The position numbers were made by a program, and so were the translations under genes. From contig AP024486.1 in assembly GCA_021654395.1 (NCBI GenBank), positions 782,440 through 814,439 on the forward strand: 32,000 nucleotides of DNA. Direction: 5' to 3'. This document shows positions 11,695 to 31,253 of the stretch, in pieces. The notes beneath the pieces were generated by a model that made no database searches, was not told the DNA's origin, and was given only the letters and a program-made list of their open reading frames with translations. Numbering within the stretch: the first letter of the stretch is position 1; each line of letters begins with the position of its first letter. Source of the DNA: Candidatus Saccharimonadota bacterium. Lineage in GTDB: Archaea; Micrarchaeota; Micrarchaeia; Micrarchaeales; Micrarchaeaceae.

Positions 11695-11710
11695 TAAAAT
11701 ACTTCTCTTA

Positions 11711-12049: not shown

Positions 12050-12155
12050 CTTATCACCCTAGTAATAGTAAGATTATACTAATTGTAATATAAAAGCTCT
12101 ACTATAGAAAGATTTAAATATTTATTTATATTATTTAAAAAATATACCACACCCA

Positions 12156-12623: not shown

Positions 12624-13231
12624 ATGTACACCTTTTTAATGAACTCTGTAACCTTTTTATTAAACAGCTCTGGGTCATCTAAATAGCAGGCATGTCTTTC
12701 TCCTATATAAGCTAGATCTGCAGCTTTATTTACATCCATTATAAGCTTAGCGTTATCAATAGGAGAGGTCTGATCATTCTTACCCCATATCAGCAGAGTC
12801 GGAATGCCATTAATAGAGTTTAAGCTATCCCCATATCTATCTACATAAACAGGAGCTACTAAGATTAATCCTTTTACATACTCTTTATTCTCTATAGCAA
12901 AGTCTAATGCAGCAACAGCGCCCATAGATGCGCCTAGATATATAGCATCTTTAATATGCAGCTCATCACACGCTGCTTTGATAAACTCAGACAGAGCTTT
13001 TACTCCATGTCTATTAAAGCTCTTGAACTTACCTAAAGAAGATCTTCCGAACCCAGGAAAGTCAAAGGCAACTGCTCTATATCCATTATCTGCTATGGCT
13101 TCTAGAGTTCTTGTTTCCTTCCATACATCTGCATTAAAGCTACGACCATGAAGTAGAATAACAGCTCTTCCTGTTCCATTCTCTATATAACGGATATCTG
13201 CATCATTTATTCTTATATATCTCTCTTCCAT
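12620..13231 (-). CDS. alpha/beta-fold hydrolase
   Basis: HGRSFNADVW oxyanion region, nucleophile elbow GASMGA, C-terminal His context ERHACYLDDPE. Confidence 0.8.
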   Translation of the reverse strand: MEERYIRINDADIRYIENGTGRAVILLHGRSFNADVWKETRTLEAIADNGYRAVAFDFPGFGRSSLGKFKSFNRHGVKALSEFIKAACDELHIKDAIYLGASMGAVAALDFAIENKEYVKGLILVAPVYVDRYGDSLNSINGIPTLLIWGKNDQTSPIDNAKLIMDVNKAADLAYIGERHACYLDDPELFNKKVTEFIKKVYI

Positions 13232-13290
13232 AATATAAATTCAGAAAGAACTAATTAAAGCTTTATTCTTAATTAACTAATCTTGATAGC

Positions 13291-13911
13291 ATGAGTAAAG
13301 CAGATCTATACGACAAGAATGATGAAAAGTTCAATGCATTAACCTCACATATGTATGGATTAGTTTATAAGCTTAAAGAAGGAAAGGAGTTTGAGAGATA
13401 CGTTACAGATAGCATTATAAGTATAGCAAAGCAGATGAATAAAAAGCTCTCTATACTTGATGTTGGATTTGGACCATTTATACTAGATGAGTATCTTTAT
13501 AAAAGGCTTAAGGAAAGCAATATAAGCTTTGATCTATATGGAGTAGAGCCTTCTGAGAGCATGTACAAGATAGCTATAAAAAGAGCAAAAAAGCTTAATG
13601 CTGATAATATATGGCTTTATATTGGCTCTTGCAGGACATTTAATAAAGAGATAGACAGTATGAGATTTGATATAATATTTATGACTCTAGTATTTCATCA
13701 TATAGAGAAGAAGAAAGATTGCATAGAGAATCTGATAAACCATCTTAATGAGAATGGCTTGATTCTTATATATGAGTTTAATAGGAGTCCTATGAATATA
13801 CATACAATGAGCTATGAGAAGCTAAGTAATATATTAAAAGATATACCTGGAATAATGTATGATATAAAAGAAGAAGGAGTATATACATTCTCTAGAATAT
13901 CTAAAGCTTAA
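13291..13911 (+). CDS. class I SAM-dependent methyltransferase
   Basis: Motif I ILDVGFGPF, post-I LYGVEPSE, and a later FHHI segment. Confidence 0.75.
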   Translation: MSKADLYDKNDEKFNALTSHMYGLVYKLKEGKEFERYVTDSIISIAKQMNKKLSILDVGFGPFILDEYLYKRLKESNISFDLYGVEPSESMYKIAIKRAKKLNADNIWLYIGSCRTFNKEIDSMRFDIIFMTLVFHHIEKKKDCIENLINHLNENGLILIYEFNRSPMNIHTMSYEKLSNILKDIPGIMYDIKEEGVYTFSRISKA

Positions 13912-14605
13912 GCCTTGCTCCAGCATCTACAGGTATTACTGCACCATCTATAGCGTAGCTTTCCTCTGATAGTAGAAAAGAGATTACATCTGCAATAAGC
14001 TCTGGCTTTAGAGTCTCTGAAGCTAGCTTAATATCTGCTCTGTAATCTCTTTCTGGCTTAAAGTCAAAAGAGATTGATAGAGGAGCAACACAGTTTACTC
14101 TTACGTTCTTTTCTATGAATATAGCTGCAAGATTCTCAGTTAACTTAGCTACTGCTGCCTTTATTGAGGAGTATAAGAATGCATCCTCAGCGAATCTATA
14201 TGTACCTGCTATAGAGGAGACTAAGACTATAGAAGATCCGCTCTTTATTCTATCCTTCAAAGCCTTTATTGTATTTATTGGTGCTTTAAGATTCGGATCT
14301 ATAAGAAAGCTAAAATCGCTATCTTCTATACTATCTAGACTTGTCTCTTTATAGTTGCCTACTGTAAGAACTAAAGCATCAATCTCTTTTATATCTGATA
14401 GAGCTTCGCTTAACTCTTTGTGATTAGATGCGTCTGCTTTAATATAATCTATACTTCCATACTTACTTAGACTCTCTTTTATCTCCTTAAGCTTATTCTC
14501 GCTTCTTGCAAGTATATAGACCTTATAACCTTCCTTAAGGAGCTTGTATGCTACTGCTGAGCCTAATCCAGGCCCAACACCAACCACTAATGCTATCTTC
14601 TGCAT
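13901..14605 (-). CDS. short-chain dehydrogenase/reductase (SDR)
   Basis: N-terminal VVGVGPGLGSAVA dinucleotide-binding loop, VLVSSIAG, catalytic YSSIKAA (YxxxK). Confidence 0.85.
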   Translation of the reverse strand: MQKIALVVGVGPGLGSAVAYKLLKEGYKVYILARSENKLKEIKESLSKYGSIDYIKADASNHKELSEALSDIKEIDALVLTVGNYKETSLDSIEDSDFSFLIDPNLKAPINTIKALKDRIKSGSSIVLVSSIAGTYRFAEDAFLYSSIKAAVAKLTENLAAIFIEKNVRVNCVAPLSISFDFKPERDYRADIKLASETLKPELIADVISFLLSEESYAIDGAVIPVDAGARLKL

Positions 14606-14647
14606 AGATGAAGCTTAATTTTAATAGTATAAAAATACTTTATCTAA

Positions 14648-14685
14648 TTTGTATTTACTATACTACTTTGTATTTACTATACTAC
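14648..14685. repeat. perfect 19-bp tandem duplication TTTGTATTTACTATACTAC x2
   Basis: Read directly: unit 1 is 14648-14666 and unit 2 is 14667-14685. They lie in the 121-nt gap upstream of the SDR start and downstream of the 391-aa ORF stop. Confidence 0.95.
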
Positions 14686-14726
14686 ATAGTCTGATTCCAT
14701 ATACTTTACAGATTTCTAAAAGTATT

Positions 14727-15902
14727 TCATTGAGAGCCTTCATCTTCGATTTTATCTAGAAGCTTCTTGAAATTCTTCAGATATAAATCAAGTGTATCTT
14801 TTTCCATTTTACCTTCAATTACATTATTTATACACTTTCCATATATAGCAACAAGTATCTCCTTAAAACGATCTATATCCTCTCGCTCGGCTTCTTTAGA
14901 TAAGGCTCTAAGGCTCTTGAGTAATAAGCTCAAAGTACTCATTGTTATAGTTTTAGTATTAAAGGCTGCTTCTATATCCTCATTTAGTTCTATTTTACCA
15001 TGTGTCGTAATAGAGCCTAAAACAGGTATTTTGTATGTTGTCTCTTCATCAGGTTGAGATTTATTTACTACTGATTCGTATACCTTAGCTATTACTGATT
15101 TAGCTCCATTATTATCAATTTCTCCTAGTATAAATATACGATCTACACAAGCTGATAAGGGAGTTATCATATTAATAAAATCTTTAAAGCTTACCTGATC
15201 AGATCTTATTAGCAATGAATCTGCTATATCTACGACTTTACCCAAATACTCCTCAAGCTTCTCTCTCTTTATGTTAAGTGCACTGTTTTTATAGAATGTA
15301 TAAAGCAATGAAAATAACTTTATTGTATCGAGTAAAGAATCCTTATCTATATCTCCAACTTTAAATTTCAATGGTAATACATCATTATTATCATCTGACC
15401 TTATCTCTTGTTTTACTTTTTGTTCAGTAGGATTGAGATAGCCGTATACCTTGTCAAAAAACTCGTATGTCGTATCTTTGTCAAAAGCTGCAATAAGATT
15501 CTCTAAGTTACTATACCCTTTTGGATTACTAGCTATTCTAACTGCATATCTTGCATATACAAATGGAGGTAAGATATAAGATCTATATAAAGCTTCTATT
15601 ATCTTTGATAATAAATCTAAATTGTCTATATTATTAACATTCTTATTTATTATATCTAATACTATATTAAGCTTGTTTGGATCTCTTGAGAGATCCATCC
15701 TTGTCTCATCTCCTATTATATACTGGAAACGAGGCCCGACACACTCAATTATTCCCGATATATTAGGATTCGATTTTGCTGCTGACCAAGAAGAGTCATC
15801 AAATCCGCACAATAATTGTTTTATATTCAGATATCTGTAGAGCTCCTCAAGTGATAGCTCACTATTAATACCTTCTTTATTAGCTTCTTTGTTAACGGAC
15901 AA
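14727..15902 (-). CDS. hypothetical protein (391 aa, no recognisable motif)
   Basis: Long uninterrupted ORF flanked by 100-120 nt gaps on both sides. Soluble and probably helical. No catalytic or binding motif recognised. Confidence 0.7.
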   Translation of the reverse strand: MSVNKEANKEGINSELSLEELYRYLNIKQLLCGFDDSSWSAAKSNPNISGIIECVGPRFQYIIGDETRMDLSRDPNKLNIVLDIINKNVNNIDNLDLLSKIIEALYRSYILPPFVYARYAVRIASNPKGYSNLENLIAAFDKDTTYEFFDKVYGYLNPTEQKVKQEIRSDDNNDVLPLKFKVGDIDKDSLLDTIKLFSLLYTFYKNSALNIKREKLEEYLGKVVDIADSLLIRSDQVSFKDFINMITPLSACVDRIFILGEIDNNGAKSVIAKVYESVVNKSQPDEETTYKIPVLGSITTHGKIELNEDIEAAFNTKTITMSTLSLLLKSLRALSKEAEREDIDRFKEILVAIYGKCINNVIEGKMEKDTLDLYLKNFKKLLDKIEDEGSQ

Positions 15903-16003
15903 TGATTAGATTAGTGATCAATATGATATAAAAGCTTTACTATTTTACTAATAGACAATTAGAGTAATTTTAATAAAAGATCAATAAAAATAAAAGCTGC
16001 CTA

Positions 16004-18379
16004 TCATTCGCACTTTGTATATCCACAGGTCTTGCATATATAACAGCCATTCTCTCTAACTAATGTCTTATTATGACATTCAGGGCATACTGCTAATCCT
16101 GGTAAGTCATCCTCGTTGCTTTTTTGGTTATCTGCCACTTCTATCTCTAATGTTCTATTAGGGCTTTTAAGTTCTACATCTGTATTAATCTTATTTGCTG
16201 CTCTTATGCTTATTATCTCTTCTAATGCCTTAGCAACTGCATCTGGTATGCTGTATATCTTGTTGCCCTCATTCCACATTACGTAGTTGCTTCTTATTCC
16301 TTTTAAGCTCCTTATAATCTCTTTTATATCTCCTCCTTCCTGCAAGTATTTGCTTATTACTCTGCCTAATGCCTCTGCATATGACTTCTCTTCTGAGCCT
16401 GCTTTACCTATATCTATAAATACCTCTACTATGTTACCATCTCTATCAAAGTTCGCTGTTACATATAAAGTTCCTTGTTGAACTTTCTCCTTTACTGTTA
16501 TTCCTATCAGCATCTTTGGTCTCTCCCAGTTAAAGCTCTTCTTTTGAATCTTTGCTGGCTCTTGCTCTTTCTTGTTTTCTTGCTCTTTCTTCTTTGCTTG
16601 CTCCTCTGTTATCAATACTCCTTCTCTTGATCCTTCTCTATAGACTGTTATTCCTTTACATCCATACTTCCATGCAAGCATATATATCTTTGCAACGTCT
16701 TCAACTGTTGCTGTCTCTGGCAGATTTACTGTTGATGATATAGCTGCATCTATGTGCTTCTGTATTGTTGCTTGCATCAAAACTCTAAACTCTGGATTTA
16801 TCTTATGCGCCTCTATGAAGTAATCTGGAAGCTTTGACTCATCATCAATTCCAAACTTCTCCATATACTGCTTTACTAAAGGATGATAAACCTTAAAGAA
16901 CTCTTTACTTAAGCTCTCGCTTCTTCTTGTATAGCTGAATGCAAATATAGGCTCTATACCAGAGCTTGTTCCTGATAAGACTGCTCCTGATCCTACAGGA
17001 GGTATTGTTAATACAGCAACATTCCTTAATCCATATCTTCTAATACCTTCTTTTACTTCATCATTTAGTCTCTCTTTTACGAATGGCATACTTAAATGCT
17101 TCTCTGCATCAAATAGCTCAAATGAGCCCTTCTCTTTTGCTAGCTCTATACTTGCAAGATATGCCCTTGTCTTTATTCTATCAAATAATTTATCAACAAA
17201 TGCTATTGCTTCTTGAGTATCATACTTTATTCTTAGCTTTGCAAGCATATCTGCTAATCCTGTAACTCCTAATCCTATCCTTCTTGCCTTCCTTGCTGCC
17301 TCTGTCTGCTCCTTTAATGGATGTTTGTCCATGTTATATTCTAATACATCATCTAAGAATCTCACTCCATATTCTACAACTTTGTCTAAAAGATCCCAAT
17401 CAAACTCTGCATTATCTTCAAATGGATTCTTTACAAAGTAAGATAGGTTTATGTTTCCTAAGTCGCAAGCTCCATAAGGCTGCAACGGCTGCTCAGAGCA
17501 AGGATTTGTTGTTATTATATTCATTCCATTATACTCGCTTGGACTGTATCTCTTCATTGTATCCCAGAAGATTAAGCCTGGCTCCGCCCAATCTCTTGCG
17601 CTCTTAACAAGCTCATTCCATAGCTCTCTTGCTCTTATCTTTCTTTCAATTCTTCCAACAATTTCATTTTCAAATCTTAATGTAAACTCTTTATCTTCTT
17701 CTACTGCTTTCATGAATTCATCTGTTACCTTAACGCTTATGTTTGCATATCTTACTTGATTAAGATTTCTTTTAACAGTTATAAAGTCAAAGATATCTGG
17801 ATGGCTTACATCTATTGTTATCATTAATGCACCTCTTCTGCCTTGCTGTCCTATAACTCCTGTTGTCTCGCTGAATAGATTCATAAATGATACTGCTCCT
17901 GTTGATGTTAATGCTGCGTTATGCACAGGAGAGCCTTTTGGTCTTAGTATGCTTATATCTACGCCGCATCCTCCTCCATAGCTGTATGTTCTTGCTGCCT
18001 CTTTGCACCAGTCAAAGATACCTTCTATGCTGTCTTCTTTTATAGGTATTACATAGCAGTTTAGCAGCGTAACTTTTCTATCTTCTAAGCCAGCTCCGAA
18101 CATTATTCTACCTCCTGGAACGAACTTAAAGTCTTCTAATAGCCAATAAAACTTCTGCTCCCATTCTGCTCTTCTCTGAGCATCTGGCTCTGCAGAGGCT
18201 ATAGCCTTTGCAATTCTATGCCACATCTCTATAGGAGTTTTCTCAAGAATATTATTGTTTCTATCTCTCTTTGCATACTTTTCGTAGAAAACTCTTGCTC
18301 TTATCTCATCACCGTTAAAGAAGGATAGAGTTTCTTCAGGTAGATCCTTAGATTTAGAAATTGCTTCTTCCATAACCAC
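16004..18379 (-). CDS. nrdJ: class II (adenosylcobalamin-dependent) ribonucleotide reductase
   Basis: Active-site TNPCSEQPL. N-terminal FYEKYAKRD...WHRIAKAIA region typical of NrdJ. C-terminal Cys4 ribbon CPECHNKT...CYICKTCGYTKCE. No ATP-cone. Confidence 0.9.
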   Translation of the reverse strand: MVMEEAISKSKDLPEETLSFFNGDEIRARVFYEKYAKRDRNNNILEKTPIEMWHRIAKAIASAEPDAQRRAEWEQKFYWLLEDFKFVPGGRIMFGAGLEDRKVTLLNCYVIPIKEDSIEGIFDWCKEAARTYSYGGGCGVDISILRPKGSPVHNAALTSTGAVSFMNLFSETTGVIGQQGRRGALMITIDVSHPDIFDFITVKRNLNQVRYANISVKVTDEFMKAVEEDKEFTLRFENEIVGRIERKIRARELWNELVKSARDWAEPGLIFWDTMKRYSPSEYNGMNIITTNPCSEQPLQPYGACDLGNINLSYFVKNPFEDNAEFDWDLLDKVVEYGVRFLDDVLEYNMDKHPLKEQTEAARKARRIGLGVTGLADMLAKLRIKYDTQEAIAFVDKLFDRIKTRAYLASIELAKEKGSFELFDAEKHLSMPFVKERLNDEVKEGIRRYGLRNVAVLTIPPVGSGAVLSGTSSGIEPIFAFSYTRRSESLSKEFFKVYHPLVKQYMEKFGIDDESKLPDYFIEAHKINPEFRVLMQATIQKHIDAAISSTVNLPETATVEDVAKIYMLAWKYGCKGITVYREGSREGVLITEEQAKKKEQENKKEQEPAKIQKKSFNWERPKMLIGITVKEKVQQGTLYVTANFDRDGNIVEVFIDIGKAGSEEKSYAEALGRVISKYLQEGGDIKEIIRSLKGIRSNYVMWNEGNKIYSIPDAVAKALEEIISIRAANKINTDVELKSPNRTLEIEVADNQKSNEDDLPGLAVCPECHNKTLVRENGCYICKTCGYTKCE

Positions 18380-18502
18380 ACCTAAAAGATTTTAGCTAAT
18401 AAACAAATAAAAATACTTTTGGTAATAAAATTACTATCTATATCTATCAAGGCTTCAAATACAAAGCCTTTTAAAAAGATTTATAATACCTACTCTAAAG
18501 AG

Positions 18503-19558
18503 CTAGTAAACTATATGCAGCATCTTTAATGTAAATCCTAGAATTACAAATAGTATCTCAACTATCCAAAAGTATGCAGACACCTCCCATTCTTTACATC
18601 TCTTAAGATTCATTATCAGATGTGTCCAGCTGTATATCTTTTTACCATAAGGTGGTCTAAAGGTTCCATCATCATTAAGCTTGCCGAGATCAGTAACATC
18701 GAATCTCTTCAGCAGATGCCATATAAACTCTATAATCCATGGTATAAATATTACTAATGCAAAAGACTCCATATTTGATATTATTGCAATCTCTGCAAAT
18801 GCACCTCCAAAAGCTAAAGTAAAGCTATCACCGGGTATGATCTTAGATCTATATAGATTAAAGATAAAGAATGGTATTAGAGATCCAGTCATTACTGCAC
18901 TTAGTAGTAAACCAGTGTAATTATGCTCTAATGCGGCATATATTAGAAATGCACTACTTAATATTAATGCTGAACCTGTTGCTAATCCGTCAAATCCTCC
19001 TAAAAGATTAAACGCATTTGATGCAAATATAACTGCAAGAGGCACTATAACTAATGGAAATATATAGCCAAGATTAACGAAGCCTATAAATGGTATAAAG
19101 ATAGTCTCTACTCTTATACTATTTATGAAGACTACAAATGGAATAGATGCTATAAATACCAGTAATGGCTTGTACTTCTGCCTAACTCCTTTCCTTTTAT
19201 CAAGCATACCTGTAGATTTTACAAAGGTCTTTCTTACATTGAGATCATCTATAAAGCCAACTAAGGAGAGTAACGTTATTGATAATGTAACTGCAAATAT
19301 ATAGTTTATCTTTATTAATGGTGTATATAAACCAGAGGTAACACCAAATATATAGGAGGATAAAGCAAGTATTATTGCTATAGGTAATACTATACCTAAG
19401 CCAGAAGGAAGCTCTGGCTTATCCTCTTTATTGTGATCAACAGCTATAACTCCAGCATCGCGCATATACTCCATTACGGCTTTTATTCCAACATATGATG
19501 CTATAAATGCTATTATGAATGGAACTACTAGAGTTAGATGTAATCCAAAGTGAGCCAT
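18503..19558 (-). CDS. glycosyltransferase family 4 polyprenyl-phosphate HexNAc-1-phosphate transferase (AglH/WecA/MraY-like)
   Basis: About 10 hydrophobic helices, GFIDDLN motif and NAFNLLGGFDGLATG motif. Confidence 0.85.
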   Translation of the reverse strand: MAHFGLHLTLVVPFIIAFIASYVGIKAVMEYMRDAGVIAVDHNKEDKPELPSGLGIVLPIAIILALSSYIFGVTSGLYTPLIKINYIFAVTLSITLLSLVGFIDDLNVRKTFVKSTGMLDKRKGVRQKYKPLLVFIASIPFVVFINSIRVETIFIPFIGFVNLGYIFPLVIVPLAVIFASNAFNLLGGFDGLATGSALILSSAFLIYAALEHNYTGLLLSAVMTGSLIPFFIFNLYRSKIIPGDSFTLAFGGAFAEIAIISNMESFALVIFIPWIIEFIWHLLKRFDVTDLGKLNDDGTFRPPYGKKIYSWTHLIMNLKRCKEWEVSAYFWIVEILFVILGFTLKMLHIVY

Positions 19559-19613
19559 AAGTATCTTAAAAGATTTTATTATTCCTATTAATAGTAAAAG
19601 CTTATATTAATCT

Positions 19614-20306
19614 ATGATATTTATGAAGGAGTTTCTTATTGTTGCACATAGAGGTGCAAGCGCTTATGCAAAAGAGAATACTTTAGAGGCTTATAGACTT
19701 GCTATAGAGCAGCATGCAAATGCTATAGAGATAGATGTAAGACTTACAAAGGATAACAAAGCAATATGCTTCCATGATGAAACATTAAGATCGTTTGGCA
19801 TTAATATGAAGCCAGAGGAGATAATGCTTGATTCTATAAAAGATCTTATAGAAAATGATGAGATTGCTTTATTAGATGACGCTTTAGATCTGATAAGAGA
19901 TAAGACATATGTACTATTTGATGTTAGAGATGATAAGGTAGCTGGGTATATCTTAGATAGTATAAGCAAGAATGAGCTTAAGAGAGTATATATAATAAGT
20001 GGAAGAGACTATATTCTTAAAGAAGTAAGAGAGCTAGATGATAAAGTAAAGCTCGGCTTTTGGTATTTCAGATATAGCAACTTAATTAATCTTATAGAAG
20101 AGCTTAATATAGAGCTTATAAAGCCAAATTATAGAGTATGCCATAAGAACGATATAGAAAGGTTTCATAAGCTAAATAGAAAGGTATTAACATGGGTTAT
20201 AAATAACAAAGAAGACATGCAGAGATTTATTGAATATGGAATAGATGGAATAGTTACTGACGATCCAAAGCTACTATACAATACATTAAGACAAACTCTA
20301 TTGTAA
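19614..20306 (+). CDS. glycerophosphodiester phosphodiesterase (GDPD family)
   Basis: VAHRGAS...ENTLEAY...AIEIDVRLTKDNKAICFHDETL catalytic region. Confidence 0.85.
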   Translation: MIFMKEFLIVAHRGASAYAKENTLEAYRLAIEQHANAIEIDVRLTKDNKAICFHDETLRSFGINMKPEEIMLDSIKDLIENDEIALLDDALDLIRDKTYVLFDVRDDKVAGYILDSISKNELKRVYIISGRDYILKEVRELDDKVKLGFWYFRYSNLINLIEELNIELIKPNYRVCHKNDIERFHKLNRKVLTWVINNKEDMQRFIEYGIDGIVTDDPKLLYNTLRQTLL

Positions 20307-20918
20307 CTGCTTTATAACTGTCTCAGTGACATTATATAATATGCTGCTTGCTTGTGTAGCAGATGAGTTATATCTATTAGATGATACTGTTGCAGTAATT
20401 AGATATCTATTTATCAAAGAAGTTACGGAGTAATATTCAGAACCCGCGATTAATAATTTAAATCCAGTTGTTCTTTGTGCTAATGGTATTGTTATATTAA
20501 AAGGCATTATTGTAGAGTTATATGTAACATTCGATATATTTTCAAATGCTTTTAATGATTCATTGTTATTATTATATTTTATTACTCTTAAAATTAAAGA
20601 ATAATTAGATGCATTGTATATATCTAATTCTCCATATAATGATCCATTATTTAAACCACTTGGTATCATTGATTGACTTAAAACATTAAATTGAGTTCTA
20701 TTTAATAAACCAAACGCCTTTGGAGGATCATATATATAATTGCTAGTATTAGTTATGTTGCTTGATATAGTAGTTGTTGTAATTTTTGTAGATGTAGTAT
20801 AAATTGTTGTTGAAATTTTGTTTTGATTTATACTTTTAAATGCATATAAAGCCGCTAGCAATATTATTACTATTATTAAGACTATAATTATTATTGATTT
20901 ATTATTCATATTCATCAT
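20298..20918 (-). CDS. N-terminally membrane-anchored, sequon-rich surface protein
   Basis: MMNMNNKSIIIIVLIIVIILLAALYAF anchor, followed by ~13 N-x-S/T sequons (hand count). The ATG at 20918 overlaps the TGA of the -1-frame ORF upstream (ATGA). The ORF-track start 20945 would give a 31-nt overlap. Confidence 0.7.
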   Translation of the reverse strand: MMNMNNKSIIIIVLIIVIILLAALYAFKSINQNKISTTIYTTSTKITTTTISSNITNTSNYIYDPPKAFGLLNRTQFNVLSQSMIPSGLNNGSLYGELDIYNASNYSLILRVIKYNNNNESLKAFENISNVTYNSTIMPFNITIPLAQRTTGFKLLIAGSEYYSVTSLINRYLITATVSSNRYNSSATQASSILYNVTETVIKQLQ

Positions 20919-21091
20919 CCTACTTGACAGCCAGATGGTTGGCATGTGTTACTATATGTAAGTGAACAACTGCCTTGGCTTGTACCGCTAACACAAGAGT
21001 AGAGGGTATAACAGTATACACCTGCACGTACACAGCTACCTTTGACACAAAAATCAAAAACTGTATAGCTTCCAGACGTACAGTAAGTACT
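20915..21091 (-). other. -1-frame continuation of the upstream pilin-like CDS encoding a second 8-Cys module
   Basis: The frame of ORF 20915..21226 reads STYCTSGSYTVFDFCVKGSCVRAGVYCYTLYSCVSGTSQGSCSLTYSNTCQPSGCQVG*. It has 8 Cys, as does the in-frame module upstream, and is preceded by the same kind of S/T linker. Confidence 0.6.
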
Positions 21092-22308
21092 GTTGTTGAT
21101 GAAGTTGATGTAGTCGATGTTGTAGATATAGAGGTTGTAGTAGAATAGCATACATAACCTGCTGTGATTCCACCAGGGCAGTGGTTTTGTGCTTGATAAG
21201 GGCAGCTTGAAGGGCAGCCAGAACATATAAATCTATGCTGTGCACAGCTGTATGAAGTCTCACCACAGCTACACACTGGCAGTGTTGAGAGTGATGAAGT
21301 TGACGAACTAGATGAAGTTGACGACGTTGAAGTTGTTGAAGAAGTCGATGTTGTAGAAGATGTAGAGGTTGTCGATGTAGTAGTTGTTGTAGTTGTAGAA
21401 GTTGTCGTAAAGGTAATTACCGTTGGACCCAGAGTTGACGTAGTCGTAGTAGTTGTAGAGGTTGTAGATATAGTAGGAATTGTTGTAGATGTAGAAGAGG
21501 TAGATGTAGAGGTTGTTGGAGATGTTGTAGATGTAGATGATGTAGAAGTTGATGTTGTTGGAGATGTTGTAGAAGTTGATGTTGTTGGAGATGTTGTAGA
21601 TGTAGATGATGTGGATGTAGATAATGAAGACGTTGTTGATGTAGTAGATGTAGTTGTCTGTATAGAGGTTGTTGAGATACTTGTAGATAAAGATGTTGTT
21701 GCTGATGTAGATATAGATGTAGTTGGTATAGATGTAGTAGAGCTTGTTGTAGTTATGCTAACAGCTGCTGTATGCAGTGTAAGAGATATAGCTGCGCTAT
21801 TAGGAAATCCGTTATTAAGATCATAATACTTTATAACAACATATCCTGAGTATAATGAGCCTGTTGGCTGAGCATATAGCTTATTATTATAATAGCAGTT
21901 AACCTCTAGATCTACTGACTGACCTGGTGCTAATGTAACCTGTGGGGTTACATTCTGAAATACTAGATTGTTTTGACTATTTGAGCATGCTATAGCTGTT
22001 ATATTTATTGGATACTGCTCATTAGATGTTATCCTTACTAATGCTCTGCCCGAAGTATTCAGCAATGCTTCGTTGCATTGAAAGCTGCTCTGAGCTATAC
22101 ATGAATTTGATACAAATGATGTAGAGTTAAATACATGCAGATAGAGCAGGATAACAAGTATAGCTGCTATTATTATTAATGCCCATCCATAAGTTATTAA
22201 GAAATCTAGTGCTGCTTGCTGCCTTTTATTCTTATTGCTAACTCTTGCTTTAATGCTATATGCTTTATTCTTATTATTTATGCTTCTTGCTTTACTGCTT
22301 CTTCTCAT
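20920..22308 (-). CDS. class III signal peptide (pilin-like) protein with long Ser/Thr tract and Cys-rich module; 3' end probably frame-disrupted
   Basis: RQQAALDFLITYGWALIIIAAILVILLYLHVF prepilin-like N-terminus, then NSCIAQSSFQCN. S/T tract spans residues ~184-343. The 8-Cys module is CSCGETSYSCAQHRFICSGCPSSCPYQAQNHCPGGITAGYVC. The last 56 residues in this frame are Cys-free and atypical. Confidence 0.75.
   Translation of the reverse strand: MRRSSKARSINNKNKAYSIKARVSNKNKRQQAALDFLITYGWALIIIAAILVILLYLHVFNSTSFVSNSCIAQSSFQCNEALLNTSGRALVRITSNEQYPINITAIACSNSQNNLVFQNVTPQVTLAPGQSVDLEVNCYYNNKLYAQPTGSLYSGYVVIKYYDLNNGFPNSAAISLTLHTAAVSITTTSSTTSIPTTSISTSATTSLSTSISTTSIQTTTSTTSTTSSLSTSTSSTSTTSPTTSTSTTSPTTSTSTSSTSTTSPTTSTSTSSTSTTIPTISTTSTTTTTTSTLGPTVITFTTTSTTTTTTTSTTSTSSTTSTSSTTSTSSTSSSSSTSSLSTLPVCSCGETSYSCAQHRFICSGCPSSCPYQAQNHCPGGITAGYVCYSTTTSISTTSTTSTSSTTVLTVRLEAIQFLIFVSKVAVYVQVYTVIPSTLVLAVQAKAVVHLHIVTHANHLAVK
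21280..21759 (-). repeat. Ser/Thr(/Pro)-coding imperfect tandem repeat tract
   Basis: The 19-nt core GTTGTTGGAGATGTTGTAG recurs at 21512, 21554 and 21581 (spacings of 42 and 27 nt) within a GT-rich plus strand. It encodes TSPTTSTSTSSTSTT-type units. Confidence 0.9.
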
Positions 22309-22357
22309 CGATTATCATTTATAAGTAAATATTAATAAATTTTTATATTTTTTAGTA

Positions 22358-22429
22358 TGGGCCTGCGGAGAGTCGAACTCCGATCTCTACCGTGTGAGGG
22401 TAGCGTCTTAACCGTTGGACTACAGGCCC
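22358..22429 (-). tRNA. tRNA-Val (anticodon CAC)
   Basis: The reverse complement reads GGGCCTG-TA-GTCC-AACGGTTA-AGAC-G-CTACC-CTCACAC-GGTAG-AGAT-CGGAG-TTCGACT-CTCCG-CAGGCCC-A, a clean cloverleaf. No encoded CCA. Confidence 0.9.
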
Positions 22430-22524
22430 AATCTAATATCTGATTATTAAAAGATTACTTGTAGAAAGATATATTAATAGGAATAAACAAATTATTATTA
22501 ACTTTCGGTATTAATCAGATATAG

Positions 22525-22761
22525 GTGTTAGATTTGAGAGGAAGAGAGACCATAGTAATATGCGATGCTTGTGGTAGAAAGATTCCTAGAAATAAAGCAG
22601 TTGCTGTAGAGAAACCTATAAACTTAGGAGTTAGTGGGGATCTAGGAAATGTAAGATTATTCGAAAAGAGGAAGGTTTATTACTGTATAAGCTGTGCTAA
22701 GCATAGAGGTATATTCGAGATGAAGAAGAGGATGAATAGAAAGGAAGAGAGATATGAATAA
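22525..22761 (+). CDS. rps26e: 30S ribosomal protein eS26
   Basis: VICDACGRKIPRNKAV and YYCISCAKHRG match the two Cys pairs and flanks of eS26 (C..CG..vPkDKA / hYCvSCAiH). 22525 is GTG; an in-frame TTG at 22534 lies 7 nt after AGGTG. Confidence 0.7.
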   Translation: MLDLRGRETIVICDACGRKIPRNKAVAVEKPINLGVSGDLGNVRLFEKRKVYYCISCAKHRGIFEMKKRMNRKEERYE

Positions 22762-24928: not shown

Positions 24929-25762
24929 TTAATCTAGCTGCTCAAATGTGCTAAGATTTACGGCTACATGATAGTTAGATATGCTGCTTGGTAATCTATT
25001 ATAAGGGTTACTTATACCTTGCTTTAAGAATGCAATCTCTAATGTTAGATTCTGATTCTGCTTTAATGGCTCGTTTAAGAGTACATAAAAACTTGCAGAG
25101 CTTGATGTATTTGAGCAGCCAGATACACAAGTGCTTAGTAATGGTGTATAGTTATTTAAGAATACTATATTGCTTAAGCTGCTGCTCTCTATATCTGTAT
25201 AGTTCTTAGGATCTATAGTAAATGATACTGCCGCATCTGCTGGTATAATTGGATAATCTGTATCTTTTATGCTTATAAGCTGCAATGCTATGGCGCTTGT
25301 ATAGTTATCTTCTATATGAAGCTGCTTTATGAATAGATTGTCTGTTTGGTTTATATAAAGCATAGCATTATATATTACAGAGATCTTATAGAAGCGATTC
25401 TGATATATAGCAATTGATTGATTTATAATAGAGATATTATAGTCTAGCTGCTTACTAAGATTTTCTGTATACCTATGCATGCTCTGATTTATAGAGTTTG
25501 CTATAAGATACTGCGTAGTGCTATTTATCGGATAGTAGAAGTTATCTGCTACTGCTGAGTATATCGCGCTGGTAAGCATAGATCTTATATCGCTATATAT
25601 TAGATAGTAGCTACTACTAGAGTCTCTTAGCTGATATAATGCCTGCAGTGATTGACTTAGCAGTATATTCTGTAATGCGTATGTAATTATTAAGCTAAAT
25701 ATAATAATGAATATTATAAATATCGTTAAAGTAAAGACAAATCCTCTCTTCTTATAGATCAT
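24929..25762 (-). CDS. pilin-like protein (minor pilin candidate), sequon-rich
   Basis: N-terminus MIYKKRGFVFTLTIFIIFIIIFSLIITYAL: basic residues, Gly, then a hydrophobic helix, resembling G/FTL-type prepilin leaders. About 12 N-x-S/T sequons. It is the last gene of a 4-gene head-to-tail operon. Confidence 0.6.
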   Translation of the reverse strand: MIYKKRGFVFTLTIFIIFIIIFSLIITYALQNILLSQSLQALYQLRDSSSSYYLIYSDIRSMLTSAIYSAVADNFYYPINSTTQYLIANSINQSMHRYTENLSKQLDYNISIINQSIAIYQNRFYKISVIYNAMLYINQTDNLFIKQLHIEDNYTSAIALQLISIKDTDYPIIPADAAVSFTIDPKNYTDIESSSLSNIVFLNNYTPLLSTCVSGCSNTSSSASFYVLLNEPLKQNQNLTLEIAFLKQGISNPYNRLPSSISNYHVAVNLSTFEQLD

Positions 25763-25764
25763 AC

Positions 25765-26271
25765 CTATCCAACTCTATATATAAGAACCTTATAGGCATT
25801 ATTATTATAATAGACGTAGATCTCTGAGCCAGCTATAGTCTGATTTGCATATATAGATGATATACTCTGCTCCTCTAGGCTATTAAATCTAAGATTATAG
25901 TAGTAGCATGTACTATCTACGCATATTCCGTAGTATCTTGTATCTATTATATGCGTCTCTATATAAGCTATAGCTAGAGGATTATTATGCTGATTTAGAT
26001 ATACTAGAGCATATGCTATGCTGTAATATCCAGGAACATAAGTACCATTTATTATATATCCATCTTGATTATAAGAGTAGTTACAAGGCGCTATATAATT
26101 ACAAAAGTAGTATATCTGCTCATTTAGCTGACTTACATCTTGCTTTATATTTGAATAAGGAGTATTGTACTGCTGCTCTGCAAATGCTATAGCTACAGAT
26201 AATGCAGCCACTATAAGTGCTGTTACTATTAGGCTAAACAATGCATCTATACTGAATATTATTAGTTTCAT
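25765..26271 (-). CDS. pilin-like protein (minor pilin candidate)
   Basis: N-terminus MKLIIFSIDALFSLIVTALIVAALSVAIAFA parallels MKLQIYSLDIMVAL of the upstream gene. 1-2 nt gaps to its neighbours. Confidence 0.6.
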   Translation of the reverse strand: MKLIIFSIDALFSLIVTALIVAALSVAIAFAEQQYNTPYSNIKQDVSQLNEQIYYFCNYIAPCNYSYNQDGYIINGTYVPGYYSIAYALVYLNQHNNPLAIAYIETHIIDTRYYGICVDSTCYYYNLRFNSLEEQSISSIYANQTIAGSEIYVYYNNNAYKVLIYRVG

Positions 26272-26272
26272 A

Positions 26273-26806
26273 CTAATCCCACAGCTCTATATAAACCTCT
26301 ACAGGGTAGCTTCCAATATATGTAAGCCTTCTTTCTACATATACATCATTTGCATTCTTCGGCTTCTTTCCTATTGATATATTTATAGAGCTATTCTCCA
26401 TGCCTATTATATTGATATAGTAGTTATATTGAGAGCCAAGTGCCACTTGCGTCATAGAGTAATTAAGATTACTCATAGCTATAAGAGTATATAGCTTCTC
26501 TGGCATTATCGTATTATTGCTACCAAGTATCCCTGGAGTTATAAGAGGCCATTGCTGAGGATCACTTAGATTTACATAATCATACCAGTTGCTTGGATAT
26601 CCTTCAGAGAGTATATTGCTATATACAGATAACACAGAGTATGGAATCTCTGCCTGATTGTTATAGCTGTTGAATGAAAGATCTGTAGCTATAGAGTTAT
26701 AATAGAACATAATAAAAGTTAAGCTTATTGCAAATACGGCTAATGCAACCATTATATCCAAGCTATATATCTGTAGCTTCATGTACATCTTAATCAACAT
26801 CTCCAT
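26273..26806 (-). CDS. pilin-like protein (minor pilin candidate)
   Basis: MKLQIYSLDIMVALAVFAISLTFIMF leader and helix. Several candidate ATGs (26806, 26800, 26788, 26782); 26782 gives the short MKLQ leader and avoids overlap with the upstream stop at 26790. Confidence 0.6.
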   Translation of the reverse strand: MEMLIKMYMKLQIYSLDIMVALAVFAISLTFIMFYYNSIATDLSFNSYNNQAEIPYSVLSVYSNILSEGYPSNWYDYVNLSDPQQWPLITPGILGSNNTIMPEKLYTLIAMSNLNYSMTQVALGSQYNYYINIIGMENSSINISIGKKPKNANDVYVERRLTYIGSYPVEVYIELWD

Positions 26807-29453
26807 TATAATAGTAAACTTGTGGAATAGGATCTGATGCTATCTGTGATACTGCACTCTGATTCAATGCTGCATAGTATAGCTGAAGGTTTGATATGCT
26901 TCCATTAAATCCTCTGCCAACAATAATATTATTTATTAGGCCGCTTGATGAGCAGCTAGTCTGATTCTGGAGTAAGCCATTTATATATATTAAGCATACG
27001 CTACCACTATTTACAACTATTATATTATATAGATCTCTTGTATTCATCTTTAAACCATTATAGTATATGTTTAACGCCTTACCATTTATATTTAGAGCTA
27101 TGCTACCGTTATTCCAGTATGCTGTAAACATGCCTGGTAGATCTATAATCTGACACTCTGAGCTACATCCAAATGGATATATATCGAATGAAACGGTATA
27201 AGCGTTATGTATATCTGTAAGCATCCCCTCTGCTGGTATAGTTATATAATTGTTACTATTAAATACTGGAGCTAATACATCTGTATATCTGCTAGGAGAT
27301 TGTATATAAGAGAAGTTAACATTAGATGTAACTACTGTTCTTGGGTTAAAATAATCCGAAGCATTACCATCAAGTAGATACCATGCAACTGCGCCATAAC
27401 TGAGAGGGGCGTCTAATGGATTATTGTACAGATTATTCACCTGCAATGAATTTAATGATACGTTATATATCTGCAAGTTAGTTATATATCCCTTCATATA
27501 TTCTCCATTAAGCTGATCCGCACCTACAACTATATCTCCTGCGATATGCGTACCTACAAGACTACTTACATCCCTGCCTATTGAGTTACATATATTAGTT
27601 ATATTAGATAAGCTTCCATCTACATATAGAGACTGAAATGACTTATTTATATAATATGTAATCATATACCATCTATTATATGAGTAGATCTGTGGTGTAG
27701 ATGCAAGTATATATCTATTACCGTTATTAGGAACATAACCGTATATTATGCCATAAGTGTTATTTGCCAATGATGTAGAGTAAGCATAAATAACAAACTG
27801 ATTTGTGCTACCTGCTGAAAGTATTGGCTCTGAGTAGACATTACATATATACTTGTTAGATAAAGCGCCTTTCGGTATATTAATCCAAAGATTAATAGTA
27901 AAGTAGTTAGAGTTAAACTTATTGTTAAAAAGGTTTATTATATTATATCCAGTATCTATATAGTTAGAGCCCTTAAAGTCTGCAGCCAGTATAGGAGAGG
28001 TGTCTGTAGGTAGATTACTCCATATAGGATCAGTAAAGCTTCCATTAACATAGCCTGCTCTTAGATCATATACTATGCTTCCATAGCCCTCATCTAAAGG
28101 ATACCAACCTGCAAGATAGTCGTATAGAGATTCATATGGAAAAGCATTAAGCACAAGCCTCTCATAAGATAGATTACCTCCAGTTATAGAAAGATTGTAC
28201 TGATTTACTCCAGCTATAACAGATAGATTCTTAGAGCTACTATAGTTGAATGTACCATTTCCTATTACTCCATAATCTGTAAATAATGAGTTGTTGCTGC
28301 TATATCTAATTACTTCGATCTTCGCAAATGTTATATAGCTTAGTGAGCTCCCTGTGCCAGCAGATCCACTAATATAGTTTAAGAGGTTACCATCTAGATT
28401 AAACCAGTCTACAAGATTGCTACTAAACTGCTCATAAAATGGATTAAATGAAGGCCCATTATTATATAATAGACTTATACTATTACCTGGTAGAGGTATA
28501 TTGTATATCTGAATATCTGCTATATTACCATTATAGTTAGATGATGCATTGTATGTAAGTAGGTATAGCTGATTTCCTTTTGGTAATCTAAAGCCAGCTA
28601 CTATACGTTGAGCTATTAGCTTTCCATTAAAGTAGAGATCTAATATACCGTTATTATAAACTATCCCTATATTAGATAAGCTGCCGTATGGCTCATTAAT
28701 AGTATATTGATAGCTTAGATCTCCGAATGTTAGATATAAGTTGTTGCCTTTTAGTATAACTAATGTCTGGCACTGCTGCGGATCATTAGCTACGCAGCTA
28801 CTGCTATTAGATATAGTAATTAAAGGACCGTTATTATCTGGGCTTTGCAGTACCCAGAATGTTATTGAGAACTCTGTTGTTTGGTTAGTTATAGAGCTTA
28901 GTGGCTCTTCTATATATCCATTGTTAGATATATTTGCTAACCTTATTGCATAATTTATATAAGGTACTGCTGACGAGCTTGAATAGCTATTATACTGTAG
29001 CTGTAGATTATTTATATATAAAACCCCAAAGTGCTTCTCTATCCTTATAAAGCCAGATGATGCATTTATGATATATAAGCCGTTGCTAAGCTCTTCAGTT
29101 GAGTTTATTATTATGCCTCTAACAGGCGCATCAGAGTAAGCAGTAATCTGATTGTTACCTATATTTATAATACCCTCTATAAATCCATTCTTAGTTAAAG
29201 CTATTATTGGCTTATGACCATCTATCACATATAAAGGCATTTGTATATTTATATTTGAGTTAGATACTGCAGCAATATCTATATATGATGCTATAATATT
29301 AACATAAGACTGAAGAAGCTTAAGATCTCTATTTGCAACTATGCTGCTATCCTGTGCAGATATAAGTAAGAATATTATGGCGAATAGAGTTAGAGCTACC
29401 ATAGATATTATAAAAAACTCCAAAGCTATCTGAAGTCTGAATGCCTTAAGCAT
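26790..29453 (-). CDS. large prepilin-like surface protein with three LamG-like (concanavalin-A-like lectin) modules; putative filament-associated adhesin
   Basis: Leader MLKAFRLQIALEFFIISMVALTLFAIIFLLI. Three modules each open with a W(Y/F)xLD(G/E) segment and end with GxIxxxQ(I/L)Y...L...(LYNN). Track start 29471 is TTG; the ATG is at 29453. Confidence 0.75.
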   Translation of the reverse strand: MLKAFRLQIALEFFIISMVALTLFAIIFLLISAQDSSIVANRDLKLLQSYVNIIASYIDIAAVSNSNINIQMPLYVIDGHKPIIALTKNGFIEGIINIGNNQITAYSDAPVRGIIINSTEELSNGLYIINASSGFIRIEKHFGVLYINNLQLQYNSYSSSSAVPYINYAIRLANISNNGYIEEPLSSITNQTTEFSITFWVLQSPDNNGPLITISNSSSCVANDPQQCQTLVILKGNNLYLTFGDLSYQYTINEPYGSLSNIGIVYNNGILDLYFNGKLIAQRIVAGFRLPKGNQLYLLTYNASSNYNGNIADIQIYNIPLPGNSISLLYNNGPSFNPFYEQFSSNLVDWFNLDGNLLNYISGSAGTGSSLSYITFAKIEVIRYSSNNSLFTDYGVIGNGTFNYSSSKNLSVIAGVNQYNLSITGGNLSYERLVLNAFPYESLYDYLAGWYPLDEGYGSIVYDLRAGYVNGSFTDPIWSNLPTDTSPILAADFKGSNYIDTGYNIINLFNNKFNSNYFTINLWINIPKGALSNKYICNVYSEPILSAGSTNQFVIYAYSTSLANNTYGIIYGYVPNNGNRYILASTPQIYSYNRWYMITYYINKSFQSLYVDGSLSNITNICNSIGRDVSSLVGTHIAGDIVVGADQLNGEYMKGYITNLQIYNVSLNSLQVNNLYNNPLDAPLSYGAVAWYLLDGNASDYFNPRTVVTSNVNFSYIQSPSRYTDVLAPVFNSNNYITIPAEGMLTDIHNAYTVSFDIYPFGCSSECQIIDLPGMFTAYWNNGSIALNINGKALNIYYNGLKMNTRDLYNIIVVNSGSVCLIYINGLLQNQTSCSSSGLINNIIVGRGFNGSISNLQLYYAALNQSAVSQIASDPIPQVYYYNGDVD

Positions 29454-29478
29454 AAGATCATCAAGCAACAATTAATTA

Positions 29479-29486
29479 TTTATAAA
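29479..29486. promoter_or_regulatory. palindromic TATA-like box TTTATAAA in a short divergent intergenic region
   Basis: It lies ~30 nt from the minus-strand ATG (29453) and ~36 nt from the plus-strand ATG (29519). The sequence is its own reverse complement. Confidence 0.3.
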
Positions 29487-29518
29487 TTGTTAAACAAAGT
29501 TTAAAATAAGATAGTATT

Positions 29519-29857
29519 ATGAAAAGGAGCACTTTACTGAGAATGCTAAAGAGAGAAGGATTATCTAGATTTGAGATAGCAGTACTCCTTTATGTTTATG
29601 ATAATAAGGATAAAGATCTAATTACATATAAGGAGATTGCAGAGGCTATAGGCCATAGTAGAGCTTATAGAGCCGTAGGCAATGCGTTGCACAGGAATCC
29701 CTTTCCAGAGGTAATACCGTGCTATAAGGTAATAAGGTCTGATATGCATATAGGCTCATACGTTAATGGTAGAGATTCTAAAAGGATCTTACTACAAAGA
29801 TCTCTTAATGGTAAAGGTTATAAGATAATAAACGATAGAGTTATAAAGATAAGCTGA
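29519..29857 (+). CDS. MGMT-family (O6-alkylguanine-DNA alkyltransferase C-terminal domain-like) small protein with variant active-site motif
   Basis: ITYKEIAEAIGHSRAYRAVGNALHRNPFPEVIPCYKVIRSDMHIGSY aligns to the MGMT wHTH/active-site region. The canonical IPCHRV is IPCYKV here, and there is no N-terminal domain. Confidence 0.7.
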   Translation: MKRSTLLRMLKREGLSRFEIAVLLYVYDNKDKDLITYKEIAEAIGHSRAYRAVGNALHRNPFPEVIPCYKVIRSDMHIGSYVNGRDSKRILLQRSLNGKGYKIINDRVIKIS

Positions 29858-29930
29858 GATATAGCTATAGGTAAGAGATATAAATACTTGCTTAAAATTA
29901 AGATTAGATATAAAACATAGACTGATATAG

Positions 29931-31253
29931 ATGGATCTTCCTGATAATCTACTTGATATAGAAGATAGAATACTAGATGCAATAAAAGGCAGATTAACTG
30001 GGCTTAAGCCAGAAGAGAGAAGCGAGCTGATAAGAAACTTGTGCTATTCAATAGATCCGAATCTCTCTAAGGACGAGATCAAGCTTATAGAAGAGGATAT
30101 AATAGACTTTGGCTTTGTTAGGCCTCTTCTCAACGATGAGCATATAGAGGATATAATGATAAACAATACACAGAATATATTTGTATATGACAACAGAACT
30201 GGAAATAAGAAGATAGGGCAGAGATTTAAGGATCAGAAGGAGCTTATTAGATTTATAAAGAAGATGGAAGCCTATAATACAAGTGAGTATAATAATGGCC
30301 AGATCTTAGATATACATCTTCCAAATGGTAGTAGAGCCAATGTTGTAGCATCTCCATTAGGCTATAATGTTACAATAAGAAACTCAAAGCCAAAACCTTT
30401 TAGTATACTAGATCTAGTTAACTATGGAGAGCTAGACTATGGATTAGCAGCTAAGCTATGGATGTATACTGATGGATTTAATGTAAGACCTGCCAATATA
30501 CTAATAGGAGGTATGCCTGCATCTGGAAAGACAACACTACTAAATGCAATGTTCTCATTCTTTAGGCCGGAAGAGAGAATAATAACCATAGAAGAGACTT
30601 ATGAGCTAAATACAGAGACGCATGAGAACTGTGTCAGACTAGAGACAAATAATGAGCTAAGGCTCGTAGACCTTGTAAAGGCATCATTAAGAATGAGGCC
30701 GGATATGCTAATAATAGGAGAGGTTCGAGGAGAAGAGGCTATAGATATGATGACTGCTATGAATATAGGTAAGAACTGTATGGCGACTATACATGCATCC
30801 TCAGCAAGAGATGTTATAAAGAGATTACAGCATGCTCCTATGAATGTGCCTTATGATATACTACCTGCAATAGATGCTATAGTTATAGTTGCACCAACTT
30901 ATGATAAAGGAAAGATGCATAGAAGGATCGTACAAGTAGCTGAGATAGCAGGACTAGAGATGAATCAAGTACTGCTTTCAGATATATATACATTTGACTA
31001 TAAAACAAAGAAGGCTAGCCTTATAATGCCAGGTGTTACTTATAGAGATCTCTTATCAGAGGTATTAGGAATAACGCCACAGGAGTTCTTAGAGGAGGAG
31101 CAGGTAAGAGCAGCTATACTAGCAAGATGCAATGAGCTACATAAGACAGATATGAAAAGCATTAGCGACGTAGTAAAGGCTTATTATATAGATCCATATG
31201 CTACAATAAAAGAGCTAGGAATGCAAGGTGTAGAGCCAGTAATTGTTAGATAA
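29931..31253 (+). CDS. type II/IV secretion system family ATPase (archaeal PilB/FlaI/VirB11-like)
   Basis: LLNDEHIEDIMINNTQNIFV N-domain motif, Walker A GGMPASGKTT, Walker B/Asp box RMRPDMLIIGEVRGEEA, His box MATIHASSARD. Confidence 0.9.
   Translation: MDLPDNLLDIEDRILDAIKGRLTGLKPEERSELIRNLCYSIDPNLSKDEIKLIEEDIIDFGFVRPLLNDEHIEDIMINNTQNIFVYDNRTGNKKIGQRFKDQKELIRFIKKMEAYNTSEYNNGQILDIHLPNGSRANVVASPLGYNVTIRNSKPKPFSILDLVNYGELDYGLAAKLWMYTDGFNVRPANILIGGMPASGKTTLLNAMFSFFRPEERIITIEETYELNTETHENCVRLETNNELRLVDLVKASLRMRPDMLIIGEVRGEEAIDMMTAMNIGKNCMATIHASSARDVIKRLQHAPMNVPYDILPAIDAIVIVAPTYDKGKMHRRIVQVAEIAGLEMNQVLLSDIYTFDYKTKKASLIMPGVTYRDLLSEVLGITPQEFLEEEQVRAAILARCNELHKTDMKSISDVVKAYYIDPYATIKELGMQGVEPVIVR

Follow-up and report, generated by a model that had tools for sequence, protein, structure and literature searches.

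A probable one-nucleotide deletion puts a conserved eight-cysteine domain out of frame in a pilin-like gene of the Micrarchaeota symbiont ARM-1

Introduction

The locus described here raises the question of why the last cysteine-rich domain of a surface protein gene should lie in a different reading frame from the rest of that gene. The gene encodes a pilin-like protein of 462 amino acids (aa) and is found within a stretch of 32,000 nucleotides (nt) of contig AP024486.1, which we call the window. The organism is the thermoacidophilic Micrarchaeota symbiont ARM-1 (Candidatus Microcaldus variisymbioticus), for which a complete genome is available (Sakai et al. 2022, PMC8784108). We refer to the frame of the 462-aa open reading frame (ORF) as frame A and to the -1 frame as frame B. 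Relatives carry the terminal domain in frame, and we consider a genuine, probably recent deletion of 1 nt at about 21091 to 21094 the likely explanation for its displacement in ARM-1, an ordinary mutation that involves no new decoding mechanism.

ARM-1 grows at pH 1.5 to 4.5 and at 50 to 75°C, and fibrous structures between it and its host are visible by transmission electron microscopy. PacBio RS II reads (DRR248897) and MiSeq reads (DRR248898) were combined by Unicycler into the genome (PMC8784108), and a proteomics data set of the co-culture exists under PXD045678 (PMC11329633).

Results

The terminal 8-Cys domain of relatives is out of frame in ARM-1

A preliminary description of the locus had read the end of frame A as a module of eight cysteines (C346 to C387; module 1), a short serine/threonine (S/T) linker ending at 21091 (linker 2), and a 56-residue Cys-free tail, and it had pointed to a second 8-Cys module (module 2) readable in the -1 frame only. 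Every detail of this frame-A account was correct on the sequence, with codon 406 (ACA) occupying 21093 to 21091 and linker 2 thus ending at 21091. Frame B likewise yielded the 58-aa peptide with exactly eight Cys from 21091, and it is stop-free from 21232 to its TGA (Table 1). Cys accounts for 0.8% of the residues across the proteins of the window, and in none of the six frames is there a stop-free 58-aa window with seven or more Cys outside the two modules and a single off-frame spot near 4800.

With the repaired C-terminus (one base restored, as described below) as the query, phmmer was run against 1.84 billion representative proteins, the E-values referring to the whole library. Only three proteins were returned, P0001 (ENA ERZ27237400), P0002 (JGI 3300005861), and P0003 (MEM3572508.1), with E-values of 6.7e-5, 9.6e-5, and 7.3e-4, and in each of them the match to module 2 makes up the last 55 to 60 residues of the protein. 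P0001 (636 aa) and P0002 (634 aa) begin with pilin-like N-termini (QPAIEYLLTYSWA and QSAIEYLITYGWA) and contain a Big_1 domain, S/T linkers, and one or two CxC...C.CPSxCP modules resembling module 1, after which a further linker leads to the terminal domain. The sequence of P0003, which comes from a metagenome-assembled genome of Candidatus Micrarchaeaceae, is a C-terminal fragment. A near-identical variant of P0001, P0007, has two extra 10-aa linker repeats that keep the frame.

The four module-2 sequences align with all eight Cys and with G7, G24, G36, P52, and G54 conserved, at 34 to 42% identity. When a profile of P0001, P0002, and P0003 alone, without the window sequence, was compared with 348 six-frame ORFs, the frame-B ORF was matched at an E-value of 5.5e-14, the next best being 0.53. 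The preliminary description had proposed an alignment of orthologs as a check on which frame is conserved; in P0001, P0007, P0002, and P0003, the 8-Cys domain is in frame and encoded in a single frame, unlike in ARM-1, where it is not in frame with the rest of the gene. Since the relatives hold the domain C-terminally and after an S/T linker, frame B stands as the biologically meaningful reading of 20918 to 21091. Module 2 is a real conserved domain, and the Micrarchaeota pilin-like proteins that carry it form a small undescribed family.

The break can be confined to about 21086 to 21097, because linker 2 consists of S/T only in frame A and YCTSG matches the homologs only in frame B. The addition of one base, e.g., ACA ACA AGT, gives a 464-aa protein (...TSSTT-S-TYCTSGSY...) in which linker 2 is joined to module 2. 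We also considered module 2 as a separate protein and rejected it; started at either of the only frame-B ATGs (21226 and 21151), such a protein would have a leader of out-of-frame module 1, and no signal-peptide-like segment was seen in these leaders by eye.

Word-index homology searches gave no match, whether the query was the repaired C-terminus, the N-terminal domain, or the alignment of module 2. A scan of genome contigs with the neighboring GT4 gene returned 16 Micrarchaeota loci of about 50% identity, at which synteny is not conserved and neither module is present. A metagenome scan with the module-2 alignment returned only the contig of P0002, already known, and profile searches of Pfam, NCBIfam, and PDB found no match to the module-2 sequence. 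AlphaFold2 models of module 2 (from the four-sequence alignment; predicted local distance difference test [pLDDT] score, 55.6) and of the protein encoded downstream (from a single sequence; pLDDT, 38.4) were too poor for fold searches.

The same pilin-like N-terminus was observed with different passengers, namely, Kelch-like SxYYA...GxWxxTTxYP repeats in locus L009 (3194 to 4900) and in P0003, Big_1 in P0001 and P0002, and none in locus L015 (165 aa). The terminal 8-Cys domain accompanies only some of these passenger types, which indicates that the family is modular.

A conserved partner gene follows module 2

The gene downstream of the pilin-like gene encodes a single-pass membrane protein. 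A homologous membrane protein gene lies on the same strand directly after module 2 in loci L019, L022, and L020 (28 to 39% identity, 23 invariant columns), and all loci share its architecture, which comprises an N-terminal transmembrane (TM) helix, an S/T linker, and about 110 aa of sequon-rich domain. This conserved gene pair indicates that the window locus is the counterpart of the cassettes of the relatives and that the ancestral gene ended with module 2.

The preliminary description had also argued from the stop-start geometry, as ATG 20918 to 20916 of the partner gene overlaps the frame-B TGA as ATGA, a geometry seen again at 12620 to 12623. Both overlaps do exist, but they do not discriminate between the frames. 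The argument is weak because the frame-A stop is equally tight, its TAG ending 1 nt before ATG 20918; because the start codon is ambiguous, with in-frame candidates at ATG 20918, 20915, and 20909, of which the last is the start chosen both by the Logan gene call and in the deposited annotation (BCS91377.1, ARM1_0834, 203 aa); and because the relatives have gaps between stop and start (4 nt in L019, 15 nt in L022, and 3 or 17 nt in L020) and no overlaps.

In L020, the ENA contig of P0001, the downstream homolog is split by an in-frame stop into two ORFs of the same frame (2798 to 2998 and 3011 to 3385), which means that another member of the cassette is broken in another lineage.

An independent assembly is identical through the break site

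We compared the window with the Logan assembly of MiSeq run DRR248898, which was made with a different assembler from Unicycler and without long reads. A 9,829-bp Logan contig is 100% identical to window positions 11703 to 21531 and runs through the shift site. Of the explanations put forward in the preliminary description, a real indel is supported by this result, whereas an assembly or sequencing error, in which the true genome would have one more base at the boundary of linker 2 and module 2 and an intact gene of 464 aa, has become unlikely. Such an error might be suspected where the site borders on a low-complexity repeat that codes for S/T, in a gene at which the deposited annotation is fragmentary and in which a Logan contig breaks about 440 nt further upstream, a sign that the region is hard to assemble. 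However, two different assemblers agree exactly on the MiSeq data through the site, no homopolymer is present there that would lead us to expect Illumina indel errors, and the k-mers used in assembly far exceed the local short repeats in length. Nor does any other gene of the window look broken: a Pfam scan of the 26 other window ORFs revealed no second broken gene, the Pfam-matched ORFs being near-full-length, and the overlapping MazG and PALP ORFs represent distinct families, each near-full-length.

The Logan assembly has a gap at 21532 to 22402, over linker 1 and the N-terminal domain, as one contig stops at 21531 and coverage resumes with another at 22403, inside the tRNA-Val gene. The length of linker 1 is therefore given by the hybrid assembly only.

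The deletion reading and the points that weigh against it

The events that would have led to the present gene can be outlined as follows. The ancestral gene would have encoded, in order, a pilin-like N-terminus, an S/T linker, module 1, a second S/T linker, and module 2, with the partner gene following. One nucleotide would then have been lost at the boundary of linker 2 and module 2 (about 21091 to 21094), so that translation would exit the conserved domain, add 56 unrelated, hydrophobic, Cys-free residues, and stop at TAG 20922 to 20920, 5 nt before the original stop. The deletion appears to be recent because module 2 is still without a stop and still has all eight Cys and the five invariant Gly/Pro positions. 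The mutation may be fixed in the co-culture or may be the majority allele there, and the shifted protein would be expected to lack the function of the terminal Cys domain. Since frame A is open almost to the native stop, ribosomes would still terminate beside the downstream start, and the partner gene could still be expressed normally.

Several points weigh against this account. The undecayed state of module 2 fits a recent mutation but would equally fit its continued expression by some means. The two assemblies were both built from the same MiSeq reads, and they were compared at the level of the assembly consensus only, so that a minority intact allele is possible. Codon-usage scoring fails to separate frames A and B (8.2 versus 6.2 bits). 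Finally, frame A is open for all 56 codons of the tail, with a probability of 0.045 by synonymous resampling of module 2 under the codon usage of the window, and this openness may be a sign that the shifted frame is under selection. The probability was 0.069 when the order of the module-2 residues was also shuffled, and in other genes of the window, only 0.25% of stretches of 57 codons are open in the corresponding frame. The homologs have just one or two stops each in the frame equivalent to frame A, so that the composition of the domain favors openness. In our view, the open tail is a mild coincidence. Survivorship may conceivably have contributed, as a gene would better tolerate a frameshift that still terminates beside the downstream start.

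The open tail also bears on a different proposal, that the shifted frame is now functional and that the 56-aa tail has been adopted by overprinting as a new C-terminus, e.g., a membrane or hydrophobic anchor. Besides being stop-free to its end, the tail has a 19-aa window, its most hydrophobic, with a Kyte-Doolittle value of 1.85. However, a one-base shift of a Cys/Ser/Thr/Gly-rich frame is expected to give such a hydrophobic, Val/Leu/Ala-rich reading as a by-product, and the few stops of the homologs in that frame make the openness less telling. No homolog of the tail was found in any related locus examined, and the undecayed module 2 in frame B argues that the shift is too young for adaptation. 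A functional tail is thus a highly improbable explanation.

No recoding or phase variation signal is found at the break

The preliminary description had noted the lack of a canonical slippery heptamer and had ranked programmed frameshifting below an indel or an error. Both points hold. No canonical in-frame X XXY YYZ heptamer is present within 21240 to 20915, a span that includes the zone in which both frames are open, there is no A or T run at the boundary, and the fold of the downstream RNA was not significant (minimum free energy, -28.6 kcal/mol; z = -1.48; 15 of 200 shuffled sequences folded at least as well). The homologs, moreover, are all single-frame, so that frameshifting is not a trait of the family. 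Against these results stand the two frames that are both open over 20920 to 21232, the continuation of frame A to its end (chance of about 0.045), and the intact module 2, all of which would be in keeping with two C-terminal isoforms that one gene yields through a -1 shift of the ribosome, or through slippage during transcription, where linker 2 ends. We regard such programmed recoding as having very little probability.

Repeat-mediated phase variation had also been suggested, but the repeats do not bear it out. All repeat periods that TRF reported in the gene (3, 6, 9, 12, 15, 18, 27, 42, 66, and 69 only) are divisible by 3, and slipped-strand phase variation is thus not supported. No homopolymer of at least 5 nt occurs at the shift site or upstream of 21085, the only such runs being two T5 tracts inside module 2. 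The same data count against a mixed population, in which intact and shifted alleles would coexist or switch on and off, the assembly would represent the majority allele, and the domain would be variably present; no repeat unit outside multiples of 3 and no homopolymer at the site would provide a mechanism for high-frequency reversible shifting, and the Logan contig runs unbroken through the site. Surface adhesins are common targets of such variation, module 2 is undecayed, and linker length varies between the near-identical P0001 and P0007, a natural polymorphism that is in frame. With these points taken into account, we judge population heterogeneity to be quite unlikely.

A combined version can be formulated in which the gene has two C-terminal isoforms, the default with the hydrophobic 56-aa tail and a minority with the disulfide-rich domain, produced through non-canonical -1 recoding or a coexisting intact allele. 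Both frames would then be kept open to the same end point, which would keep termination coupled to the start of the partner gene. We give this version little credence and consider it very unlikely.

Architecture and neighborhood of the pilin-like gene

The features of the locus are listed in Table 1. The N-terminus of the 462-aa ORF is homologous to a segment of L015 (19304 to 19738, inside the 165-aa ORF at 19283 to 19780; tblastn E-value, 4e-27) and to P0002 (residues 12 to 101; BLASTP E-value, 1e-12), and module 1 aligns with the CxC...C.CPSxCP...CP motifs of P0001 and P0002. Neither the N-terminal region nor the 462-aa ORF has a match in Pfam or NCBIfam. A basic leader and a hydrophobic helix are present, with a candidate class III cleavage site, KRQ/QAALDFL (22210 to 22230, aa 27 to 34), that has Q at position -1. 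The homologs carry G or A at this position (KG/QSAIEYL, KA/QSAVEYL, and RA/QSAIEF), which makes processing of the ARM-1 protein by a prepilin peptidase uncertain. We take the gene product to be a pilin-like, probably glycosylated, cell-surface protein of ARM-1.

Table 1 Features of the pilin-like locus and its surroundings (window coordinates)
Feature	Position	Strand	Description
Frame-A ORF, pilin-like surface protein	22308-20920	-	462 aa; stop TAG 20922-20920
N-terminal region (aa 1-184)	21757..22308	-	Basic leader, QQAALDFLITYGWALIII class-III-signal-like hydrophobic segment, globular domain
S/T-rich linker 1	21283..21756	-	DNA tandem repeats of 6-69 nt, every period divisible by 3
Module 1	21148..21273	-	Frame A; 8 Cys, C346-C387, CSCGETSYSCAQHRFICSGCPSSCPYQAQNHCPGGITAGYVC
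S/T linker 2	21091..21147	-	Frame A; YSTTTSISTTSTTSTSSTT, with 9-nt repeat at 21095-21119
Frame break (inferred)	21086..21097	-	ACA ACA/GT ACT TAC TGT
Cys-free tail	20923..21090	-	Frame A; 56 aa (VLTVRLEAIQ...HLAVK)
Predicted frame-A tail peptides			LEAIQFLIFVSK, VAVYVQVYTVIPSTLVLAVQAK, AVVHLHIVTHANHLAVK
Module 2	20915..21091	-	Frame B (-1) only; 58-aa 8-Cys domain STYCTSGSYTVFDFCVKGSCVRAGVYCYTLYSCVSGTSQGSCSLTYSNTCQPSGCQVG, plus stop TGA 20917-20915
Predicted frame-B module-2 peptide			AGVYCYTLYSCVSGTSQGSCSLTYSNTCQPSGCQVG
Antisense ORF ARM1_0836 (BCS91379.1)	20975..21148	+	57 aa; deposited annotation; opposite linker 2 and module 2
Downstream single-pass membrane protein	20298..20918	-	N-terminal TM helix, S/T linker, ~110-aa sequon-rich domain

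Neighboring proteins of the window match BCS91377.1 (ARM1_0834) and BCS91382.1 (ARM1_0839) exactly. The G+C content is about 33%. A tRNA-Val gene (22357 to 22430) lies upstream of the 462-aa ORF, whose downstream neighbors are the gene for the membrane protein, a GDPD gene in the opposite orientation, and genes for a GT4 protein and a ribonucleotide reductase. The protein collection that we searched contained neither the exact 462-aa protein nor the 103-aa frame-B ORF, the repaired 464-aa protein, or versions with alternative starts. As the 462-aa ORF is missing there and the antisense ARM1_0836 is annotated, the deposited annotation appears to have split the gene or called it wrongly. ARM1_0836 itself is probably spurious and owed to the break in the gene.

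A further cluster lies about 3 to 10 kb from the pilin-like gene, where four ORFs with hydrophobic N-termini (277, 168, 177, and 893 aa) occupy 24929 to 29471 beside an MGMT-like gene; the 893-aa ORF has a Laminin_G_3 match in the Logan annotation. A FlaI/PilB-family ATPase gene is located at 29931 to 31253 (match to the FlaI-family model at an E-value of 1.2e-66, below the model cut-off). The region from 24929 to 31253 is a probable type IV pilus-like locus. ARM1_0838 (BCS91381.1, 75 aa, 22534 to 22761, + strand), named hypothetical, matches Pfam Ribosomal_S26e (E-value, 3.6e-7; 31 bits against a gathering score of 27).

Discussion

A genuine and probably recent deletion, which we regard as the likely origin of the frame break, has consequences mainly for those who work with the ARM-1 co-culture, since beyond the matters of the co-culture and its annotation it is an ordinary frameshift. 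Very few Micrarchaeota other than ARM-1 are in culture. Had the mutation arisen in the laboratory, the cultivated strain might be without a surface function that its relatives in nature have kept, and such a loss would matter for the interpretation of attachment, cryo-electron tomography, and proteomic data from the co-culture. Proteomic searches against the deposited annotation may also have missed the protein, because that annotation is fragmentary and the 462-aa ORF is absent. Were the two-isoform version true instead, it would represent a novel means by which a DPANN symbiont varies the fiber that contacts its host.

As for the part that may have been lost, the architecture of a pilin-like N-terminus, long and probably glycosylated S/T linkers, and Cys-rich modules, taken together with the hot and acidic growth conditions of ARM-1, suggests a surface fiber or adhesin. 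Module 2 could plausibly be a disulfide-stabilized distal module of such a fiber or adhesin, or an anchor, that acts together with the membrane partner.

Archaeal type IV pilin-like proteins carry class III signal peptides, as described in the archaeal pilin and FlaFind literature. The ARM-1 protein resembles archaeal type IV pilins in its basic leader and in the Q-x-A-[IL]-[DE]-[YF]-L hydrophobic helix that comes after it, and, as is the case for type IV pilins, a FlaI/PilB-family ATPase gene and proteins with hydrophobic N-termini are found near the gene. However, it is unlike ordinary pilins in having a long S/T linker, Cys modules, a non-canonical position -1, and no Pfam or NCBIfam match.

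With regard to frame changes, the alpha-fucosidase gene fucA1 of Saccharolobus solfataricus is an archaeal example of programmed -1 frameshifting and has a canonical A AAA AAT slippery heptamer. Its overlapping 0 and -1 ORFs jointly encode the protein that single-ORF relatives have, an arrangement that the ARM-1 gene would match, but the ARM-1 gene has neither a heptamer nor a significant downstream structure. Phase-variable adhesin and pilus genes of bacteria, such as Neisseria pilC, switch by slippage at homopolymers or short repeats. In pilC-type genes and in the ARM-1 gene alike, a frameshift in a surface-fiber-associated gene alters the presence of a C-terminal functional part; unlike the pilC-type genes, the ARM-1 shift site has no homopolymer or non-triplet repeat.

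A close likeness is also seen to the relatives themselves. The ARM-1 protein is without their middle domains, i.e., Big_1 in P0001 and P0002 and the repeats resembling the L009 protein in P0003. It shares the pilin-like N-terminus and the CxC...CPSxCP module with P0001, P0007, and P0002, the S/T-rich linker with all four, and, in frame B, the terminal domain YC(T/K)(S/G)G...C...C..G..C....C..G....C.....C.P.GC that is common to ARM-1 and its relatives.

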